Source: an uncultured virus (IMG/VR IMGVR_UViG_3300030329_004627)
Taxonomy: Duplodnaviria; Heunggongvirae; Uroviricota; Caudoviricetes
Virus record (IMG/VR): IMGVR_UViG_3300030329_004627
Reading direction: 5' to 3' (one strand)
Length of the DNA: 20,000 nt
A program made the position numbers and the translations under genes. The notes beneath the pieces are model-generated. The model was not told the DNA's origin. It ran no database searches and was given only the letters and a program-made list of their open reading frames with translations. Positions within the stretch are counted from its first letter, which is position 1, and each line of letters starts with the position of its first letter. This document shows, in pieces, positions 7,684 through 16,476 of this stretch.

Positions 7684-8970
7684 ATGGCCACAATTGAACG
7701 AGGATTTATAGTAGATAATCAAAATGACGCATTCAACGCTTTTGCAAAAAAGATAAGATATCGCACGTACACTCGTAGTGATGCGGCCCATGTAATTGAT
7801 TTTAATTTGGGAGAGATGGTTTATTATGGACGAATGGACAATTTTAATATACCGGTATCATTGGGTGCTTCTCCTCAAAAGATGCTCGCACCGACAAGGC
7901 GCACTAAGAGCGTTGTTGAGCCAGAATATGGATTAAACTTTGTTATGATGGTATTTGAAGAGATGGCTCTCCATTTTGAAAAAGCCGTCGCCACCCGACA
8001 GATACTTCCCTCAGAGAAGTATCTCTCTAATCTTACAGTCTATCGGGGATTTGACGATCCGTGGATAAGATATCGCTCCTACACGGGAACTTATCTGCGC
8101 TCGCTGTATGGCAGCATGTTAAACCTCGGATTAAATCCTACTAATACATTTAAAAACATGAAAGAACTATTGAATTTTTTTCCTGCTTTTACGCAAGAGA
8201 TGGCACTTACAACTCCTTTTACTTATCCTTCTTATATAAAAAGCCGGATGGGCGACATATTAGGAAGCGGCTTGGCTTTGGAATTAGCCGACTTGTCCTA
8301 CTCTAATGATGAGGAAAAAATAAATCATTTTTATAATAGTCGTACGTGGAACTATTATGTTAATGCCTGTAATGAGTTTGGATTTAGAATAGACGCAAAT
8401 ATTCCTTGGCGCATCGTGGCCGATATAGACTCCAGTATAATGAAGTTTGCGGCCAACCGCCTTCAGATGCCCGGTGGAAGATTTATTTTTTCTTCTCTTT
8501 ATGAAAAAGGCGCCCAGACGTATTTGCGAAATATGCCCAAGCTGCTTCTAGAGATGTATAATCTACTTTCGCCGACAGCCTATGAAGAGCGCACTTCGTG
8601 TCCTGCCGGTGGCGAGGTAAGAAAGATTAAGCGCATGCGTACATATCAGAATTACGACCAAGTGCTTGCCGAAATCGATATTAAAGATATTCTCACTTTC
8701 TATATGAGACTGCGCCTTAATGAGCAAATGCCCGAGATGGATACATTTCAACGAGATACGATCATGAGCGATTGCCTGAAATTATATCAATCATCTGGAC
8801 AACTTACCCTCCCACTAACAATTTTCGAATCGATTGTTTCATCTACTATTGACAAGATTGGATCTTTCAGTTATCATAAGAAGCATATACAAGCTTTCTA
8901 TAAGCAGATGTATGACAGGGGCGAAATTGACGCGCTTCAAGTAGAGGCTCAGATTGGGGGTGGCTATTGA
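7684..8970 (+). CDS. Hypothetical phage protein (428 aa)
   Basis: Long ORF with SD AAGGAG at 7671-7676. No recognisable motif. Its TGA stop overlaps the next TTG start (TTGA). Confidence 0.75.
   Translation: MATIERGFIVDNQNDAFNAFAKKIRYRTYTRSDAAHVIDFNLGEMVYYGRMDNFNIPVSLGASPQKMLAPTRRTKSVVEPEYGLNFVMMVFEEMALHFEKAVATRQILPSEKYLSNLTVYRGFDDPWIRYRSYTGTYLRSLYGSMLNLGLNPTNTFKNMKELLNFFPAFTQEMALTTPFTYPSYIKSRMGDILGSGLALELADLSYSNDEEKINHFYNSRTWNYYVNACNEFGFRIDANIPWRIVADIDSSIMKFAANRLQMPGGRFIFSSLYEKGAQTYLRNMPKLLLEMYNLLSPTAYEERTSCPAGGEVRKIKRMRTYQNYDQVLAEIDIKDILTFYMRLRLNEQMPEMDTFQRDTIMSDCLKLYQSSGQLTLPLTIFESIVSSTIDKIGSFSYHKKHIQAFYKQMYDRGEIDALQVEAQIGGGY
8849..8877 (+). promoter_or_regulatory. Sigma70-type promoter inside the 428-aa gene, upstream of the mini-PolA
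   Basis: TTGACA (8849-8854), 17-bp spacer, TATCAT (8872-8877). Confidence 0.65.
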
Positions 8971-10142
8971 TATTTCAGGCACTTGACGATAAGTCAGAAT
9001 GTATTGGAATTTACGCAGATGGCAAGTTATCGTTTGAAAATTTTCCAGAAAATTTAACACAGACATGGCGCTACAGCGCATCTATCACAGACCCATCGGT
9101 GGAGTATGCCTGGATACGTGCTGGTGGGCGCAATATCACCGATTGCTGCCCAGAAGATTTATGTAACGAACTTCAGGCTACGATAAGAAAAATGAAGGCG
9201 TATTTGAAGTCTTTTAAGATTGCGAAAGTTAATATGGCGGATCATTGTGTGTTTGACTTGATCCCTCACGATTTCCTTGTACGGTTTTGCGAGATCAAAA
9301 ATAAAATTACAGAGCATGTGTTCAGTACATACGAGAAGCCAGATAATTACGAGCACTTAGACGCGGTATATAAGTTGCTTCACAAGATTCGTTATCAGAA
9401 GCTTAATCTTAATAGCGAAGATTGTAAGCACTTGTTTTATTCTTCTATGAATCGTCAAAAGATCCAAGAGCTTATGAAGAACTTTAGGCGCATTGATTAT
9501 AATATGTTTGGCACCGTCACCGGTCGCCTCACAACACACCCAGAATCGTTTCCCATTCTTACGCTAAAGAAGGATCTGCGCCGAATAATCAAGCCTCACA
9601 ATGACTTGATGATGAGTCTTGATTATAATGGTGCTGAGATTCGCACACTGCTAGACTTGTGTGGCCAAGAGCAGCCCGAGTATGATATTCACGAATGGAA
9701 TATTCAGAACGTTATCAATGATTTAGAGATGACTCGCGAAGAGGCAAAGCTTTACTTCTTTGCTTGGTTGTATAATCCACAATCAAACGATATTGATTCA
9801 GAGTATTACGATCGTGAAAAAGTTCTTGACAAGTATTACAAAGACGGTTATATTCATACTCCATACGGACGAAAAATTAAAGTGGAGCAAAGAAAGGCGT
9901 TGAATTACTTAATCCAAAGCACAACCGCCGACCGCGTTTTAGAAAAAGCCGTTCTGGTTGACCAGATGCTTGAAGGCAAGAAGTCGTTCATTTCGCATAT
10001 AGTTCACGATGAGATTGTGATTGACTATTCGGATGAAGATCGTGATATAGTGATTGGCCTTCGCGATGTCTTCGAAGGCGGCTTTATGGCCAACTTGCGT
10101 GCGGGAAAAGATTATTATAATTTGAATGAGATAAAGCTATGA
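8967..10142 (+). CDS. polA: Compact family-A DNA polymerase (polymerase core only)
   Basis: Contains TVTGRL, motif A LDYNGAEIR (cf. DYSQIELR), motif B REEAKLYFFAWLYN, GYIHTPYGR, ALNYLIQSTTAD (cf. N-x-PIQGTAAD) and motif C IVHDEIV. Only 391 aa. The TTG start overlaps the upstream stop. Confidence 0.85.
   Translation: MIFQALDDKSECIGIYADGKLSFENFPENLTQTWRYSASITDPSVEYAWIRAGGRNITDCCPEDLCNELQATIRKMKAYLKSFKIAKVNMADHCVFDLIPHDFLVRFCEIKNKITEHVFSTYEKPDNYEHLDAVYKLLHKIRYQKLNLNSEDCKHLFYSSMNRQKIQELMKNFRRIDYNMFGTVTGRLTTHPESFPILTLKKDLRRIIKPHNDLMMSLDYNGAEIRTLLDLCGQEQPEYDIHEWNIQNVINDLEMTREEAKLYFFAWLYNPQSNDIDSEYYDREKVLDKYYKDGYIHTPYGRKIKVEQRKALNYLIQSTTADRVLEKAVLVDQMLEGKKSFISHIVHDEIVIDYSDEDRDIVIGLRDVFEGGFMANLRAGKDYYNLNEIKL
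9826..9854 (+). promoter_or_regulatory. Sigma70-type promoter inside the polymerase gene, upstream of the tubulin-like gene
   Basis: TTGACA (9826-9831), 17-bp spacer, TATATT (9849-9854). Confidence 0.55.
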
Positions 10143-10978
10143 TTTCGATCGTTGGGCTAGGCTCGGCAGCGTCTAAAATTGCTGAAAAATTCAAGCAGAC
10201 TAAAAACTATAATGTCTATGTAATGAACGGCAATGTAGAAAGAAACAGCAAGTATAAATTTAAACTTAAAACGTATGATACACCAGAGGAATACGAAGCC
10301 AATATTCCTAATGTTAAGAAATTTCTGGGAACCTCTGATGAGCATATTCAGATTTTTATTGTAGGCTCTTCATTAAGCTCAGCTTATGCTTTGGGAATCT
10401 TAGAACAAATTAAGCATCGTAAGATTGATGTGTTCTATATTCAGCCTGATGGAGAGCTGATGACAGGTGTGCCCAAACTGTTAGACCGCGCTGTTTTTAG
10501 TATATTACAGGAGTATGCTCGATCCGGACTGTTAGCTTCTTTTACTGCGATGTCAAATGTTGCAATTGAAAAGACCATAGGAGATATTCCTATCAAACAT
10601 TATTATGATAGAATAAATGATTCGATTTTTTCAACAGTTCATTATATAAATTATTTCAACCATGCGGAACCAGAAATTGGAATGACATCGAAGCCCCTCG
10701 ATATTAATCGTATTAGAACTTATGGAATTTTAAATACTAAAAATTTAGAAGAAAAATGGCTATATCAACTTGACATGGGTCGCGACCTATGTTATTATCT
10801 ATGTATCAATAACAAACGATTAGAAAACGAAGGAGGATTGCACAAGAAGATAGTCGACATGCTCAAGGAAAAACCTAGAAACGCATTTCGGAAAATTTCT
10901 TACGCAATCTATGAAACAGAACACAACGATTTTGGGCTCTGCGTTGCCCATACTAACGCAGTACAAGAATACACTTGA
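10139..10978 (+). CDS. Divergent tubulin/FtsZ-like protein
   Basis: The N-terminal ISIVGLGSAASKIAEKF matches the FtsZ/tubulin T1 strand-loop-helix. IFIVGSSLSSAYALGIL sits where GGGTGSG is expected. FYIQP and AMSN-x(14)-YDRINDSI match later FtsZ-fold elements. ATGA overlap with the polymerase stop. Confidence 0.55.
   Translation: MISIVGLGSAASKIAEKFKQTKNYNVYVMNGNVERNSKYKFKLKTYDTPEEYEANIPNVKKFLGTSDEHIQIFIVGSSLSSAYALGILEQIKHRKIDVFYIQPDGELMTGVPKLLDRAVFSILQEYARSGLLASFTAMSNVAIEKTIGDIPIKHYYDRINDSIFSTVHYINYFNHAEPEIGMTSKPLDINRIRTYGILNTKNLEEKWLYQLDMGRDLCYYLCINNKRLENEGGLHKKIVDMLKEKPRNAFRKISYAIYETEHNDFGLCVAHTNAVQEYT
10770..10798 (+). promoter_or_regulatory. Sigma70-type promoter with extended -10 and palindromic spacer, inside the tubulin-like gene
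   Basis: TTGACA (10770-10775), 17-bp spacer ending TGT, then TATTAT (10793-10798). Bases 10773-10792 (ACATGGGTCGCGACCTATGT) form a near-perfect palindrome. Confidence 0.6.
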
Positions 10979-11003
10979 CAAGCTACGTTGAGTGTCATAC
11001 AAT
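10975..11003 (+). promoter_or_regulatory. Sigma70-type promoter for the SSB gene
   Basis: TTGACA (10975-10980, overlapping the upstream TGA stop), 17-bp spacer, TACAAT (10998-11003). SD AAGGAG at 11043-11048. Confidence 0.8.
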
Positions 11004-11055
11004 AGGAATCAAGGAAAGCTTGATTTACTTTACCCAACTAATAAGGAGAAATAAA

Positions 11056-11826
11056 ATGGGAATCAATATGGAACTGATGCGGCAAAAGCTCGCATCCCTT
11101 CGCGGCGAAGGAAACAAGGACGCAAACTCACCCTGGTTCAAGCCAGATGAGGGCGATACAGATATTCGGATCGTGCCGACAAATGATGGCGATCCATTGA
11201 AGGAAATGTTCTTCCACTATAATGTGGGCGAGCATCGCGGAGGTATCCTCTGTCCAAAGCGCAACTTTGGCGAGCACTGCCCCGTATGTGAATTTGCTTC
11301 TTCGCTTTGGCGCGAGGGAGTTGACAACAACGATGAGGAGAGCAAGAAGCTTGCGAAGAGTCTCTTCGTGCGCACCCGCTATTTCTCGCCCGTTGTTATC
11401 CGTGGTCGCGAAGACGAGGGCATCAAGGTCTACGGCTACGGAAAGCAGGCTTATGAGCTACTTTTGGGATACATTCTGGATCCCGAATACGGAGACATCA
11501 CTGATGTGAAGGAGGGTACGGACATTACCCTTACTTATACCAAGCCCAACAAGCCTGGAGCGTATCCCCAGACAAACCTAAAGATGCGTCGAAATACGTC
11601 CACCCTCCTGGCAGACAGCGAAGCGATCCCCGCCCTCCTCGATCGCATGCCTGACTTTGACAATCTATTCGATCGTCTTAGTCCAGCCCAGGTCGACGCA
11701 ATCCTCGATGAGCAGCTTTCGGGAAGTTCTTCCGCAGAAAGTCGCTCGTCTGAGACAGCCAAGTACGGTGCCACCAATGGTAAGAGTGATGTAGACCGTG
11801 CGTTTGATGAATTGATGACAGGCTAG
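11056..11826 (+). CDS. T4 gp32-like single-stranded DNA-binding protein
   Basis: Contains WFKP...IRIVP, the Zn ligand set HYNV...LCPK...HCPVCE, YGYGKQAYELL, YGDITDVKEGTDITLTY, and an acidic tail DVDRAFDELM. Start moved from TTG 10975 to ATG 11056, which has an SD site; 10975 is the promoter -35 box. Confidence 0.9.
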   Translation: MGINMELMRQKLASLRGEGNKDANSPWFKPDEGDTDIRIVPTNDGDPLKEMFFHYNVGEHRGGILCPKRNFGEHCPVCEFASSLWREGVDNNDEESKKLAKSLFVRTRYFSPVVIRGREDEGIKVYGYGKQAYELLLGYILDPEYGDITDVKEGTDITLTYTKPNKPGAYPQTNLKMRRNTSTLLADSEAIPALLDRMPDFDNLFDRLSPAQVDAILDEQLSGSSSAESRSSETAKYGATNGKSDVDRAFDELMTG

Positions 11827-11848
11827 TAGTAAATAGGTGAGTCTAGTA

Positions 11849-11881
11849 CCGATGGCAGAGCGGGGTTGAAATACTCTGCCA
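11849..11881 (+). other. Structured RNA element copy 1 (hairpin, possible pseudoknot)
   Basis: CCGA-TGGCAGAG-CGGGGTTGAAATA-CTCTGCCA, an 8-bp stem. Paralogous to 12010-12037. Confidence 0.7.
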
Positions 11882-11902
11882 AATTTTCCAAAAGGAGGGA
11901 TT

Positions 11903-12001
11903 ATGAAGTACGCTGTACTAATCGCCGCATGCGCTCTAATGAGCGGATGCGGAGACGCTGAAGAAGATACTGGCGAAGACACCGCAGTCGCCGCTGAGTA
12001 A
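11903..12001 (+). CDS. Tiny acidic lipoprotein (32 aa), not in the ORF track
   Basis: MKYAVLIAACALMSGC-GDAEEDTGEDTAVAAE*: basic N-terminus, hydrophobic core, lipobox-like MSGC at Cys16. Strong SD AAGGAGG at 11892-11898. Confidence 0.75.
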   Translation: MKYAVLIAACALMSGCGDAEEDTGEDTAVAAE

Positions 12002-12009
12002 AACAAAAG

Positions 12010-12047
12010 CCGCTGGCAGACCGGTGAAAAGTCTGCCGCATTTTTTT
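12010..12047 (+). terminator. Structured RNA element copy 2 / probable intrinsic terminator
   Basis: CCGCT-GGCAGAC-CGGTGAAAA-GTCTGCC-GCA-TTTTTTT: a 7-bp GC-rich stem followed by a T7 run, 14 nt before the recA start. Confidence 0.6.
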
Positions 12048-12061
12048 AACAAGAGGGCTTT

Positions 12062-13204
12062 ATGGCAAAGAAAACAAAAACAAAAGCAGGTCGGGTTGGA
12101 CTACAAGACTTGATGACCTTAGTGAATAAGAAAGCCGGCAGAAATGTCGCACACGATTTAACCGGAGATAATCCAACCTCCGTTAAAGATTGGATCCCAA
12201 CAGGCTCCCGCTGGCTTGACTCTATTATTTGTAAGGGGCGCCGCGCCGGCATTCCGGTTGGTAAAGTAACTGAGATTGCCGGATTAGAATCTACAGGTAA
12301 ATCTTACATGGCAGCACAAATCGCAGCCAACGCCCAGAAACAAGGAAAATTGGTTGTATATTTTGATTCTGAATCAGCAATCGACCCAACTTTTCTAGAG
12401 CAAGCAGGCTGCGATTTGAGCCGTCTAATGTATGTTCAAGCATCCTCTGTCGAGTTTGTGTTGGAAACCATCGAGGAGTTGCTAGGGGCTACGGATGAGA
12501 AGCTTGTTTTAATTTGGGATTCGTTGGCATTTACGCCTGCTGTCTCGGATGTTGAAGGCGACTTCAATCCACAATCTTCAATGGCAATGAAGGCACGTAT
12601 TCTTGCGAAGGGTATGTCAAAGTTGACGATTCCTATTGCTGATAAGCAAGCTACTTTCATTGTGCTCAATCAGTTGAAGACTAACATCCCACAAGGGCCG
12701 ACAGCGCGCATTGTCGCGATGACGACACCTTATATTACCCCAGGCGGAAAGGCTATGCATTATGCCTACTCTTTGCGCATCTGGCTCACCGGCCGCAAGG
12801 CCAAGTCTTCGTTCGTTGTAGATGAGAAAGGGTTCCGCATTGGATCGGAGGTTAAGATCAAACTTGAGAAGTCTCGCTTTGGAACTCAGGGTAGATCCTG
12901 CGCTTTCCGTATTCTCTGGGGTAACGAGATTGGCATCCGAGACGAGGAAAGCTGGTTTGACGCGATCAAGTCATCTGAGCACCTGACTTCTGCCGGCGCG
13001 TGGTATACGTTAAAGATGGAGGACTACGAGAAAAAGTTTCAACCATCCAAATGGACACAACTAATTTCAACTGATGATGAATTTAAGAGTAGGGTTATGC
13101 GTCTAATGGACGAAGAGATAATCCAAAAGTTCGATAAACGTGAAGGCAGCGCCGAAGCATACTACGCAGAGCCAGAGGATCTAACAGTACCACACAAGGA
13201 GTAA
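12062..13204 (+). CDS. recA: RecA/UvsX-family recombinase
   Basis: Contains IPTGSRWLD, GIPVGKVTEIAGLESTGKS (Walker A), YFDSESAID, LIWDSLA (Walker B), LNQLK and TPGGKAMHYAYSLRI. Confidence 0.95.
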   Translation: MAKKTKTKAGRVGLQDLMTLVNKKAGRNVAHDLTGDNPTSVKDWIPTGSRWLDSIICKGRRAGIPVGKVTEIAGLESTGKSYMAAQIAANAQKQGKLVVYFDSESAIDPTFLEQAGCDLSRLMYVQASSVEFVLETIEELLGATDEKLVLIWDSLAFTPAVSDVEGDFNPQSSMAMKARILAKGMSKLTIPIADKQATFIVLNQLKTNIPQGPTARIVAMTTPYITPGGKAMHYAYSLRIWLTGRKAKSSFVVDEKGFRIGSEVKIKLEKSRFGTQGRSCAFRILWGNEIGIRDEESWFDAIKSSEHLTSAGAWYTLKMEDYEKKFQPSKWTQLISTDDEFKSRVMRLMDEEIIQKFDKREGSAEAYYAEPEDLTVPHKE

Positions 13205-13207
13205 ATC

Positions 13208-13516
13208 ATGGTTTCACTATTCACAACATTACTATTGGCAACGCAGCTAAATGTTGCGGAGGCACACAAGGCGCGCAAGCCACATACACATGCGCGCCCT
13301 CACACTCATCATTCTCATCAAAAAAGAACCCACGTACATGTGAGACACAGGCACCATTCTTATAATGTGGCTAAGCCCCATCGACCTCCGAAAGCTCGTA
13401 CCGCTCATTCGGTGTATTTTTATCGCGGACATTGGGTGATGACTCACCACAGACCACACTTGATGTGGCGATGGAATCACCATCGCGGAAAGTGGGTGAT
13501 TGTTTTCAGATTCTGA
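13208..13516 (+). CDS. His/Arg-rich small protein with putative signal peptide
   Basis: SD AAGGAG at 13196-13201. The hydrophobic N-terminus ends in an AEA cleavage motif. The remaining 83 aa contain 20 His and no Asp or Glu, with two RG(H/K)WV repeats. Confidence 0.7.
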   Translation: MVSLFTTLLLATQLNVAEAHKARKPHTHARPHTHHSHQKRTHVHVRHRHHSYNVAKPHRPPKARTAHSVYFYRGHWVMTHHRPHLMWRWNHHRGKWVIVFRF

Positions 13517-13580: not shown

Positions 13581-14042
13581 ATGAATATATTCGTATTACA
13601 TAAGGATCCGACAATTGCTGCACAAATGGCTTGTGACAAGCATGTCGTTAAAATGATTTTGGAAACAGCACAGATGCTATGTACGGCTGCTAGAGCCAAA
13701 AGCGCATGGGCGCCGTATGGTGCGACACACAAGGGCCATCCGTGTACCATCTGGACAGGCACGTCTAAGGGAAATTGGGATTGGCTTGTCGATCATGGCA
13801 AAGCTTTGTGTGCCGAATATACTAAGCGCTATCGCCGACGCCACAAGAGCGAAAACGTTATTCAGTATTGCGCGCAGCTAAACTTGTCGTTCGAACTACA
13901 GGAAAAAACACCGTTTGCCCAGGCAATGCCCCCGCAGTATAAAAACGAGTGTCCTGTTATGGCCTATCGCGCATATTATATGGGCGAGAAAGCAGCTTTC
14001 GCAACCTGGAAAACCCAAACACCTGACTGGTGGAGAGTATAA
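13581..14042 (+). CDS. Pyrimidine dimer DNA glycosylase / endonuclease V family protein
   Basis: MNIFVLHKDP-x(2)-AA-x(3)-CDKHVVKMILETAQML, HKGHPCTIW, EYTKRY-x(3)-H, FAQAMP and AYRAYY are typical of this family. Confidence 0.85.
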   Translation: MNIFVLHKDPTIAAQMACDKHVVKMILETAQMLCTAARAKSAWAPYGATHKGHPCTIWTGTSKGNWDWLVDHGKALCAEYTKRYRRRHKSENVIQYCAQLNLSFELQEKTPFAQAMPPQYKNECPVMAYRAYYMGEKAAFATWKTQTPDWWRV

Positions 14043-15022
14043 TGAAAAGAGTATTGATTATTGACGCGCTAAACGCATATCTGCGCGCTTACATTGTTGA
14101 CCCGTCTATCTCATCTAACGGACAGCCGATTGGTGGACTGAAGGGGTTTATCAAAATCCTACAGAAGCTTGTCCGAGAGACTAAGCCTGATAACATTATC
14201 ATTGCGTGGGATGGCCCCGATGGCTCCCGCAAGCGCAAGACTATGGACAAGAACTACAAGGCAGGCAGAAAGCCTATCCGCCTTAACCGTGCTATTCGTA
14301 ACCTGACAGAAGATGAGGAGCTTGCCAACAAGATGTGGCAACAGAAGCGCATTATTGAGTATATGAACGAGATGCCTATCATTCAAGTTTTGATTCCTCA
14401 GATTGAGGCAGACGACATTATCTCTTATGTCACACAGATGAACCACTACGACGGCTGGCAGAAGATTATCGTATCAAACGATAAAGATTTCATGCAGTTG
14501 TGCGATGAGGAGACTGTACTGTGGCGCCCTACTGTCAACGAAATGCTGAACACAAAGCGCATCGTTGAGACAACCGGTGTTCATCCTCGCAATATGGCGC
14601 TTGCCCGTGCGATGGCCGGTGATGCGTCAGATAATTTACCCGGCATCAAGGGCGCCGGGTTAAAGACAATTCAGAAGCGCCTTCCATTTCTTGGAGAAGA
14701 CAAAGACTACAATATCCCAGACGTTCTTGACTACTGTATTAAGAGCACAAAAGGATCACGCGTGAAGTTCTATGACAGCGTAATTGAGAATAAAAAATTG
14801 GTGGAACACAACTATAAAATGATGCAACTTTACGCGCCCCAAATGTCTGTCCAAGCAAAGCAGTTTACACAAGAAGCAGTAACGAATTTCGAGTGTGATT
14901 TCAACAGGACAGAGCTAATTCGCATGATGCGTGAAGACGGATTTGGCGAGTTAAACTGGGAAGATCTTAAGTCACAGTTAAACAAGATCAACTACGAGTG
15001 TGTTGACAACACAACCAAATAA
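14042..15022 (+). CDS. Stand-alone 5'-3' exonuclease / flap endonuclease (Pol I N-terminal domain / T4 RNase H family)
   Basis: Contains LIIDALN, AWDG, YKAGR, EADDII, VSNDKDFMQL and the H3TH motif GDASDNLPGIKGAGLKT. The start is likely ATG 14042 (TAATG overlap, SD GGAG at 14032-14035) rather than 14030. Confidence 0.93.
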   Translation: MKRVLIIDALNAYLRAYIVDPSISSNGQPIGGLKGFIKILQKLVRETKPDNIIIAWDGPDGSRKRKTMDKNYKAGRKPIRLNRAIRNLTEDEELANKMWQQKRIIEYMNEMPIIQVLIPQIEADDIISYVTQMNHYDGWQKIIVSNDKDFMQLCDEETVLWRPTVNEMLNTKRIVETTGVHPRNMALARAMAGDASDNLPGIKGAGLKTIQKRLPFLGEDKDYNIPDVLDYCIKSTKGSRVKFYDSVIENKKLVEHNYKMMQLYAPQMSVQAKQFTQEAVTNFECDFNRTELIRMMREDGFGELNWEDLKSQLNKINYECVDNTTK

Positions 15023-15087: not shown

Positions 15088-16476
15088 ATGATCGCAGAAA
15101 AAGCAAACTTCGGAAGGTATGGAAAAACCTTTCAAGAAGGACTTGTTCAGCTAATCTTTGAGGATAGACCGTTCGCGGATCAAATCACAGAGGTGTTGGA
15201 CATTAACTTTTTAGAGCTTGAATATCTTCAAGTTTTTCTACGCAAGATTGTGACGTATAGAGCGAAATATAATACGCATCCATCCGTAGAAGCAATGGTT
15301 ACGATTGTTCGCACTGAACTAGAGGGCGAAGATGAGGTTACACAAAAGCAAGTGCGCGAATATTTCGCACGCATCCACACTCGCGAGCTTCAAGATAATG
15401 ATTACATTAAGGAAACATCGTTAGACTTCTGTCGCAAGCAGAACCTTAAAGAAGCGATGATGAAGTCTGTTGGGTTGCTTCAGACGTGCTCCTTCGATGA
15501 GATTTCTAAGGTCATCAACGACTCGCTTAAACTTGGATCCGAGAACAACTTCGGTTATGATTACATGGCTGATTTTGAGGAGAGGTTTAAGCCCAAGCAC
15601 AGAAATCCAATCACAACTGGCTGGAAAGACATTGATGCGATTGTTGGTGGTGGCCTAGGCAAGAGCGAGTTGGGAGTTGTGATTGCTCCAACTGGCGCGG
15701 GCAAGAGTATGGTGCTTGTTCACCTAGGCGCCGCCGCACTGCGCGAGGGCAAGACTGTGGTTCAGTATACATTAGAACTACAGGACACAGTAATAGCGAA
15801 TCGTTACGATAGCTGTATTACCGGCTATCCCCTCTCGGACATCAAGAATTTTAAACAAGAGATATACGAAGAGATTAAAGACTTTGAAGGCAATCTGATT
15901 ATCAAGGAGTATCCTACGAAATCGGCATCTACTAACACAATTCGCGCCCACTTGTCGCGACTTGTGAAGCGAGGAATAAAGCCGGGAATGATCATAGTAG
16001 ACTATGCTGATCTTCTTAAGCCAGTACAGGTGAGAAAGGAGAAGAGAAACGAACTTGAGTCTATTTATGAAGAGCTGCGCGCATTATCCACGGAGTTTCA
16101 ATGCCCTATTTGGACAGCCTCACAAACAAACCGATCAGGACTAAGCGCAGAAGTAATCACCATGGAGCAGATTTCCGAGGCATTCAACAAATGCTTTGTA
16201 GCTGACTTCATTTTCTCTGTCTCTCGCACGATCGAGGACAAACAAAATAATCAAGGCAAAATTTTTATTGCTAAGAATAGGAACGGGCCCGATGGAATGG
16301 TGTATCCGATATTTATGGACACGTCAAATGTTAACATTAAGATATTACCCAAGCCCCCCGTCGCCAACACACAAGGACAAGTCCAGGTTGTTACTGCGCC
16401 TGTGGCTTTGGATCCGGCGGCACAAAAGAAGTTACTAGCAGATAAATATAACAAATTAAGAGGAAACCGCAAATGA
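15088..16476 (+). CDS. dnaB: Replicative SF4 helicase (DnaB / T4 gp41-like)
   Basis: Contains ITTGWKDID, GGGLGKSEL, Walker A APTGAGKS, YTLEL, IIKEYPT, IIVDYADLL, IWTASQTNR and KNRNGPDG. Confidence 0.93.
   Translation: MIAEKANFGRYGKTFQEGLVQLIFEDRPFADQITEVLDINFLELEYLQVFLRKIVTYRAKYNTHPSVEAMVTIVRTELEGEDEVTQKQVREYFARIHTRELQDNDYIKETSLDFCRKQNLKEAMMKSVGLLQTCSFDEISKVINDSLKLGSENNFGYDYMADFEERFKPKHRNPITTGWKDIDAIVGGGLGKSELGVVIAPTGAGKSMVLVHLGAAALREGKTVVQYTLELQDTVIANRYDSCITGYPLSDIKNFKQEIYEEIKDFEGNLIIKEYPTKSASTNTIRAHLSRLVKRGIKPGMIIVDYADLLKPVQVRKEKRNELESIYEELRALSTEFQCPIWTASQTNRSGLSAEVITMEQISEAFNKCFVADFIFSVSRTIEDKQNNQGKIFIAKNRNGPDGMVYPIFMDTSNVNIKILPKPPVANTQGQVQVVTAPVALDPAAQKKLLADKYNKLRGNRK

Follow-up and report, generated by a model that had tools for sequence, protein, structure and literature searches.

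The 20,000-nucleotide stretch analyzed here (the window) comes from the uncultured virus IMGVR_UViG_3300030329_004627 and is the final 20 kb of a viral contig 138,897 bp long. It carries, on the plus strand, a gene for a shortened family A DNA polymerase of the divPolA1 type (8967..10142), directly followed by a gene for a 279-aa protein with a predicted tubulin/FtsZ fold (10139..10978), which we refer to as pseudo-tubulin. We regard the pseudo-tubulin as a new, degenerate form within the tubulin superfamily, linked to a polymerase that is already known but has yet to be explained. No description of its family was found in the literature searched, including the parts covered of PMC9123017, PMC11835377, and PMC2875224, with subscription journals mostly outside the search. 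A preliminary description of the window had presented the two genes as a candidate new module; the polymerase, however, has been published before.

A predicted tubulin fold without its signature motifs

None of 150 pseudo-tubulin homologues matched the Pfam family Tubulin at E ≤ 0.01, sequence-only searches being blind to the fold, and the ESM Atlas provided a lead only (0.88). A model made with AlphaFold2 from a 150-row alignment had a predicted local distance difference test score (pLDDT) of 94, and its residues 1-279 aligned to tubulin-family chains. The best structural match was CetZ (Z 24.1, root mean square deviation [rmsd] 3.0, 257 aligned residues; a second CetZ, Z 22.5), followed by TubZ (Z 22.1), FtsZ (Z 20.8; one further FtsZ, Z 11.3), and PhuZ (Z 16.3-16.7), with tubulins likewise among the matches at Z 16-24, and the top match outside the tubulin family scored Z 9.1. 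Foldseek matches to the tubulin family had E values of 1e-11 to 1e-13. The model predicts the two-domain fold of tubulin and FtsZ, consisting of a Rossmann GTPase domain, H7, and a C-terminal domain.

The canonical T4 motif GGGTG(S/T)G, defined as the tubulin signature in PMC2875224 (in the part covered), occurred in 0 of 150 homologues. A degenerate T4 region, GxGxx[STP]G, was present in 41 of the 80 distant members and in none of the 70 close ones (the protein of the window included), where the region has decayed to a GSSxSS-like sequence. The catalytic T7 loop pattern NxDxxD/E was likewise absent from all 150 homologues within residues 171-193, and the 4-21 residues (median 9) beyond the last strand leave the protein without a C-terminal tail. 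The T1 glycines are kept, as are N140 and N160 (at least 99% of homologues) and Y155 (84-97%), which we take to be putative guanine-contacting residues by position rather than from a residue-level alignment. In addition, Q124, R128, S129, R191, and Q276 form a near-invariant surface patch that is specific to the family.

With PhuZ and TubZ, the pseudo-tubulin thus has in common the predicted fold, its phage origin, and the T1 glycines, but, unlike them, it has neither the canonical T4 motif nor the T7 loop nor the tail. CetZ and FtsZ are its best structural matches, yet identity to them is only about 12%, and the signature and T7 loop are missing in this comparison as well. In PhuZ, both the T7 loop and the C-terminal tail are required for hydrolysis and assembly (PMC7950403, in the part covered). 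Judging by its motifs, the pseudo-tubulin likely neither hydrolyzes GTP nor forms dynamic filaments. Because it lacks the T7 loop and the tail, it is unlikely to position DNA by means of a dynamic filament, which weakens the earlier suggestion that it may tie replication to a location in the cell.

The family comprises 1,042 clusters at 90% identity and, by our estimate, about 1,600 stretches in IMG/VR. No cultured phage with a pseudo-tubulin was found by tblastn, and remoter relatives of the family may have been missed. Since Pfam and PHROGs both miss the family, surveys of phage tubulins based on hidden Markov models would not count it.

An intact second tubulin is encoded elsewhere on the same contig (84459-85598; L006:11459-12598), with T4 and T7-like motifs and an acidic N-terminal extension. 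It shows 87-94% identity among close relatives and was matched in 7 of 24 relatives, including 1 of the 6 near-complete ones. It is an accessory gene, patchily distributed across the phage family. A heterodimer of the two tubulins as a core function was rejected, given this single near-complete relative with the intact gene and the lack of profile similarity between the two proteins.

The polymerase is divPolA1

The polymerase gene has a TTG start and encodes 391 aa matching Pfam DNA_pol_A (E 4e-12). Its AlphaFold2 model (pLDDT 95) aligned end to end to Klenow-type enzymes (Z 20-21.6); residues 1-387 gave 371 aligned positions across a 577-residue Klenow span (Z 21.0, rmsd 3.5). The palm is intact, with motifs that align to KlenTaq and nine residues (R187, D219, E224, R257, K261, Y269, Q317, H347, and D348) that are the same in all 150 homologues. 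From their E. coli equivalents, we take these nine to be catalytic or substrate residues, and E224 to be the steric-gate glutamate. The thumb region (residues 127-184) is only 56-60 residues long, where about 110 aa is normal. Residues 1-144 matched exonuclease folds weakly (Z 6.5-8), with D7 invariant. An alignment range starting with residue 1 at 352 would presumably place the invariant Q4 at Klenow D355, judging from ranges rather than a residue-level alignment, and the 3'-5' exonuclease-like domain is predicted to be inactive. This domain (window 8967-9300) retains invariant Q4, D7, K9, C12, W34, and C94 and may have taken on a new use as a site of binding. The structure models and motif losses of the two proteins bear out the earlier view that both are reduced versions of known folds.

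A short thumb, an inactive exonuclease, and an intact palm have been described for divPolA1, covering 14 genomes of 155-190 kb with a second, regular polymerase and replication genes downstream (Yutin et al. 2024, Virol J, PMC11348598, in the part covered). The polymerase of the window shares with it the short thumb, the intact palm, the downstream replication genes and, in relatives, the second polymerase. Its profile aligned to gene 1 of an Immutovirus (MW353176) with an HH-align probability of 98.2% (E 4e-14), which we take to be the divergent PolA of that phage, since its gene 71 encodes another PolA of greater length. The gene labels of MK892784 in the supplement of Yutin et al. follow the same order as the gene families in genome G001. 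The polymerase of the window is therefore the already published divPolA1. In the literature searched, divPolA1 appeared only in that paper and its preprint, and neither these texts nor the three supplements mention tubulin or FtsZ (text searched; the image of Fig. 4B was not covered).

A DnaE polymerase was found in 20 of 24 relatives examined, including all 6 that were at least 90% complete; it was missing only from the contig of the window, which ends before the position of DnaE in its relatives, and from 3 other fragments. Since all near-complete relatives carry DnaE, divPolA1 is likely an accessory enzyme and not the replicase. A search of 7 genomes for a phage beta clamp, limited to PF02767, found none. 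We also considered divPolA1 as a late RNA polymerase. This was disfavored by the steric-gate glutamate, which is invariant in the tubulin branch, by the higher structural scores of DNA polymerases over RNA polymerases (Z 21 versus 10), and by the presence of a weak match to the late sigma factor of T4 type (PHROG 234, E 0.007; contig 40085-40891, L004:2085-2891).

A truncated PolA that depends on its neighbor is known from SCCmec, where CCPol needs MP, the product of the adjacent gene, which alters polymerase activity (Bebel et al. 2020, PMC7581432, in the part covered). The phage pair is arranged in the same way, with a truncated PolA and its neighboring gene preceding a helicase, and could by analogy be a primase-polymerase that makes DNA primers de novo. 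However, MP contributes single-stranded DNA binding (same source), and the phage partner differs from it by its predicted tubulin fold. The phage also has its own primase, of the DnaG type (PHROG 47, E 2e-43). Single-stranded DNA binding is not a known property of the tubulin fold, and we consider de novo priming by the pair very unlikely.

Linkage, overlap, and promoters

Linkage was counted over 341 loci taken from the best-80 lists of the scans, a redundant set in which each co-occurrence count is inflated, as the loci were partly retrieved through the gene being counted. All 226 polymerase loci with 2.5 kb of sequence downstream contained the pseudo-tubulin gene, and all 252 tubulin loci with 2.5 kb on the upstream side contained the polymerase gene. 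The survey of gene neighborhoods that had been proposed for the pair thus never found the two genes apart within this phage branch, but a sister branch has divPolA1 without the tubulin (see below), which agrees in part with the independent occurrence that had been named as counting against the proposal. No fused protein was found among 7,999 candidates, which is a weak test.

The stop codon of the polymerase gene (TGA, 10140-10142) overlaps the tubulin start codon (ATG, 10139-10141) in an ATGA; open reading frames (ORFs) and Pfam matches confirmed this overlap as first described, along with the genes for a single-strand DNA-binding protein (SSB) and RecA that come next. Because 4-nt overlaps are common in this genome (17 of 125 co-directional pairs, and the polymerase start also overlaps the stop of u428, the gene before it, in a TTGA at 8967-8970), the ATGA alone is ordinary and weak evidence; its conservation is not ordinary. 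Among 180 polymerase-tubulin pairs dereplicated at 90%, it was kept in all 94 close relatives. The genes of the 86 distant relatives overlap in 41 cases, abut in 16, and lie 21-150 nt apart in 2 and more than 150 nt apart in 27. Translational coupling, as originally proposed, is not obligate, given the wide gaps of the distant relatives and a promoter-like site inside the polymerase gene (9826..9854, plus strand, about 310 nt 5' of the tubulin gene in the window). Sites of this kind ahead of the tubulin gene occur in 67 of the 94 close relatives but in only 9 of the 86 distant ones.

The site inside the polymerase gene is one of several consensus matches to sigma70-type promoters on the plus strand. 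Another, TTGACA-17-TATCAT, lies 5' of the polymerase gene (8849..8877), and two more lie 5' of the SSB gene (10770-10798 and 10975-11003). Such motifs were found 5' of the polymerase gene in 139 of 162 loci and 5' of the SSB gene in 143 of 164; the corresponding numbers for control windows were 4 and 12 of 180. As consensus matches only, the motifs bracketing the pair fit a two-gene early unit, and the SSB gene, marked by its own motifs, is likely a separate transcription unit. The SSB is of the gp32 type (11056..11826, plus strand; PF08804, E 1e-14), and its most likely start is the ATG at 11056 behind AAGGAG, preferred over a TTG at 10975.

A promoter-like site of its own would also suit a tubulin that acts apart from the polymerase, sharing only its early timing. 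The pseudo-tubulin might cap FtsZ filaments of the host and block division, adding to them by its nucleotide face and, without a T7 loop, halting their growth. Its FtsZ-like two-domain fold, its preserved top-face residues, and the loss of T7 are in line with this, as is its greater variability among close relatives (75-82% identity, versus 86-95% for the polymerase). On the other hand, identity to FtsZ structures is only 7-14%, the most conserved patch is specific to the family and not FtsZ-like, and the tubulin gene was never seen away from divPolA1 (252 of 252 loci). We regard FtsZ capping as unlikely.

Rate covariation was calculated for the 55 of 180 loci that had seven complete genes. 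The tubulin was the top partner of the polymerase (rho 0.38), and exonuclease and DnaB reached 0.54; the signal for the pair is suggestive and not specific. The highest covariation of the tubulin itself was with u428 (rho 0.48), which would suit a static scaffold or localization factor independent of the polymerase, with u428 or the baseplate gene upstream as its partner, or a non-dynamic oligomer that anchors DNA. In support of such a role, u428 was separated from the pair in 0 of 166 loci, and 5 of the 6 near-complete relatives have no match to the intact tubulin, so that the pseudo-tubulin may be their only one. However, saturation can produce spurious covariation between genes that evolve fast, the promoter motif at 8849 splits u428 from the pair, and a tail of the kind that PhuZ needs for polymerizing is absent (PMC7950403, in the part covered). 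A scaffold of this type therefore seems rather improbable. Prediction of a complex of polymerase and tubulin from paired 150-row alignments scored 0.00, which carries no weight for or against binding.

A sister branch with GP2 in place of the tubulin

The cultured Flavobacterium phage immuto_3-5A (Immutovirus) has the same block order as the tubulin branch, and its whole genome contains no pseudo-tubulin match at E ≤ 10. Among 79 sister-branch loci, all 64 informative ones instead have GP2, a conserved protein of 130-150 aa, after divPolA1. A phage of 484 kb and the Microcystis phage Mel-JY01 also carry GP2 in this place. Of the 58 distant loci that reach the SSB or RecA gene, 56 have GP2 between divPolA1 and these genes, and the tubulin was found in 0 of 80. 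Conversely, GP2 had no match in loci L001-L355, and 19 genomes tested with both profiles contained either the tubulin only (12) or GP2 only (7). The split coincides with a difference in polymerase motif A, which has glutamate in the branch with the pseudo-tubulin and histidine in the branch with GP2 (66 of 80 sequences; 13 unparsed, 1 methionine).

The pseudo-tubulin is not an obligate partner of divPolA1, since the sister branch keeps the polymerase without it; rather, a single conserved gene occupies the slot between divPolA1 and the SSB gene in nearly every case. Two candidate partners for divPolA1 and a testable two-branch split are thereby provided, and the slot is open to genetics, since Flavobacterium immuto and Microcystis Mel-JY01, both cultured phages, belong to the GP2 branch.

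The sister branch also bears on the analogy with T7 DNA polymerase and thioredoxin drawn in the preliminary description, which suggested a processivity or scaffold factor. On a model of this kind, the tubulin would stand in for the missing thumb and turn the small PolA into a processive replicase. T7 DNA polymerase is a replicase with an extended thumb (the thioredoxin-binding domain, TBD; PMC10201439, in the part covered). Both cases involve a PolA and an accessory protein, in the phage pair only a proposed one, but the thumb of the window's polymerase is shortened rather than extended, and its relatives have DnaE. The thumb of 56-60 residues, the invariable ATGA of close relatives, and the absence of PF02767 beta clamps from the 7 genomes searched would all agree with a processivity factor. 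Against it, DnaE is a core gene, the exonuclease is predicted to be dead, and equally short-thumbed divPolA1 enzymes occur in cultured phages without the tubulin. Because the polymerase is likely not the replicase, the analogy is undercut, and we consider it highly improbable.

GP2 corresponds to gene 2 of MW353176 (L394:1346-1801), with homologues in L397-L566, and contains a basic, near-invariant HRKKE stretch. It had no convincing PHROG match and no match in the Atlas. The idea that GP2 or Immutovirus gene 3 is a tubulin fragment was unsupported (HH-align probability ≤2%). The same phage block was also seen between N gaps amid bacterial genes on the chromosome of a WOR-3 metagenome-assembled genome (MAG; L486:3514-8873), which may be misassembled. 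GTDB yielded two MAG matches, neither of which was used for host inference.

A possible role in short-tract synthesis

We propose that divPolA1 is a short-tract accessory polymerase beside the DnaE replicase, and that the pseudo-tubulin is a helper that forms no filaments and recruits or gates it; we give this reading a probability of roughly one in three. It builds on the observed gene order, co-occurrence, motif gains and losses, and DnaE genes of relatives, and on two predicted folds, from which we infer the partner roles. The sigma70-type site at 8849 would drive early expression of both genes. The short-thumbed, non-proofreading divPolA1 would then extend short tracts while DnaE replicates the genome; candidate tracts are Okazaki gaps, together with the stand-alone 5'-3' exonuclease, or the 3' ends of D-loops, together with RecA and gp32. 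The pseudo-tubulin would recruit or gate the polymerase at gp32-coated DNA, through its putative guanine pocket and its near-invariant patch, and GP2 would take the same job in the sister branch. More generally, and more doubtfully, a tubulin fold off cytoskeletal duty may have become the guanine-nucleotide-sensing subunit of a two-subunit accessory polymerase of phages, evolutionarily interchangeable with GP2.

Several observations weigh against this proposal. As the whole block is syntenic, the adjacency of polymerase and tubulin may be inherited gene order. The exchange of tubulin and GP2 is a single evolutionary event between two clades, not many. In addition, 2 of 58 sister-branch loci reach the SSB or RecA gene with neither GP2 nor tubulin, genes of 300-800 aa often stand between GP2 and divPolA1, and in 24 of the 27 wide polymerase-tubulin gaps a small ORF was called on the plus strand, with several unrelated families represented. 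Finally, the top rate partner of the tubulin is u428 and not the polymerase. Binding to the polymerase would make the pseudo-tubulin a protein of tubulin fold with a part in DNA synthesis, of which we found no report, and divPolA1 with its partner would be used by a very large, mostly uncultured group of phages.

Genomic context

The contig has an estimated completeness of 75% and belongs to a T4-like myovirus, as indicated by its T4-type major capsid, portal, terminase, and prohead protease genes and its tail genes; near-complete relatives have genomes of 185-190 kb. The phages that carry the pair are a widespread group of large, uncultured marine viruses; the origins of the homologues include Tara sources, and the sole listed run is a marine metagenome. 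Across relatives, the block runs in the order baseplate gene, u428, polymerase, tubulin or its replacement, SSB, RecA, exonuclease, and DnaB. On the plus strand of the window, u428 (7684..8970) is a fast-evolving core gene, with about 30% identity where the polymerase has 90%, and was never more than 150 nt from the polymerase gene in 166 dereplicated loci. Downstream of the SSB gene, the window encodes a RecA/UvsX-like recombinase (12062..13204; PF00154, E 1e-35), a stand-alone 5'-3' exonuclease of the Pol I N-terminal type (14030..15022), and a DnaB-like helicase (15088..16476), all on the plus strand.

Following RecA, a 102-aa ORF rich in histidine and arginine, with an N-terminal hydrophobic stretch, is kept in close relatives (window 13208-13516). 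Across loci, the intervals between SSB and RecA (window 11826-12062 and its equivalents) and between RecA and the exonuclease are hotspots for the insertion of variable genes. Two other regions of the contig (1-11200 and 79400-97500) contain many ORFs with nearly the same motifs at their N termini (MKLLxENWR-like and MKITKxQLK-like). Approximately 20 sugar-modification genes, encoding glycosyltransferases, a GDP-mannose dehydratase, and cytidylyltransferases, are clustered (L003:3962-19531, L004:464-1378).

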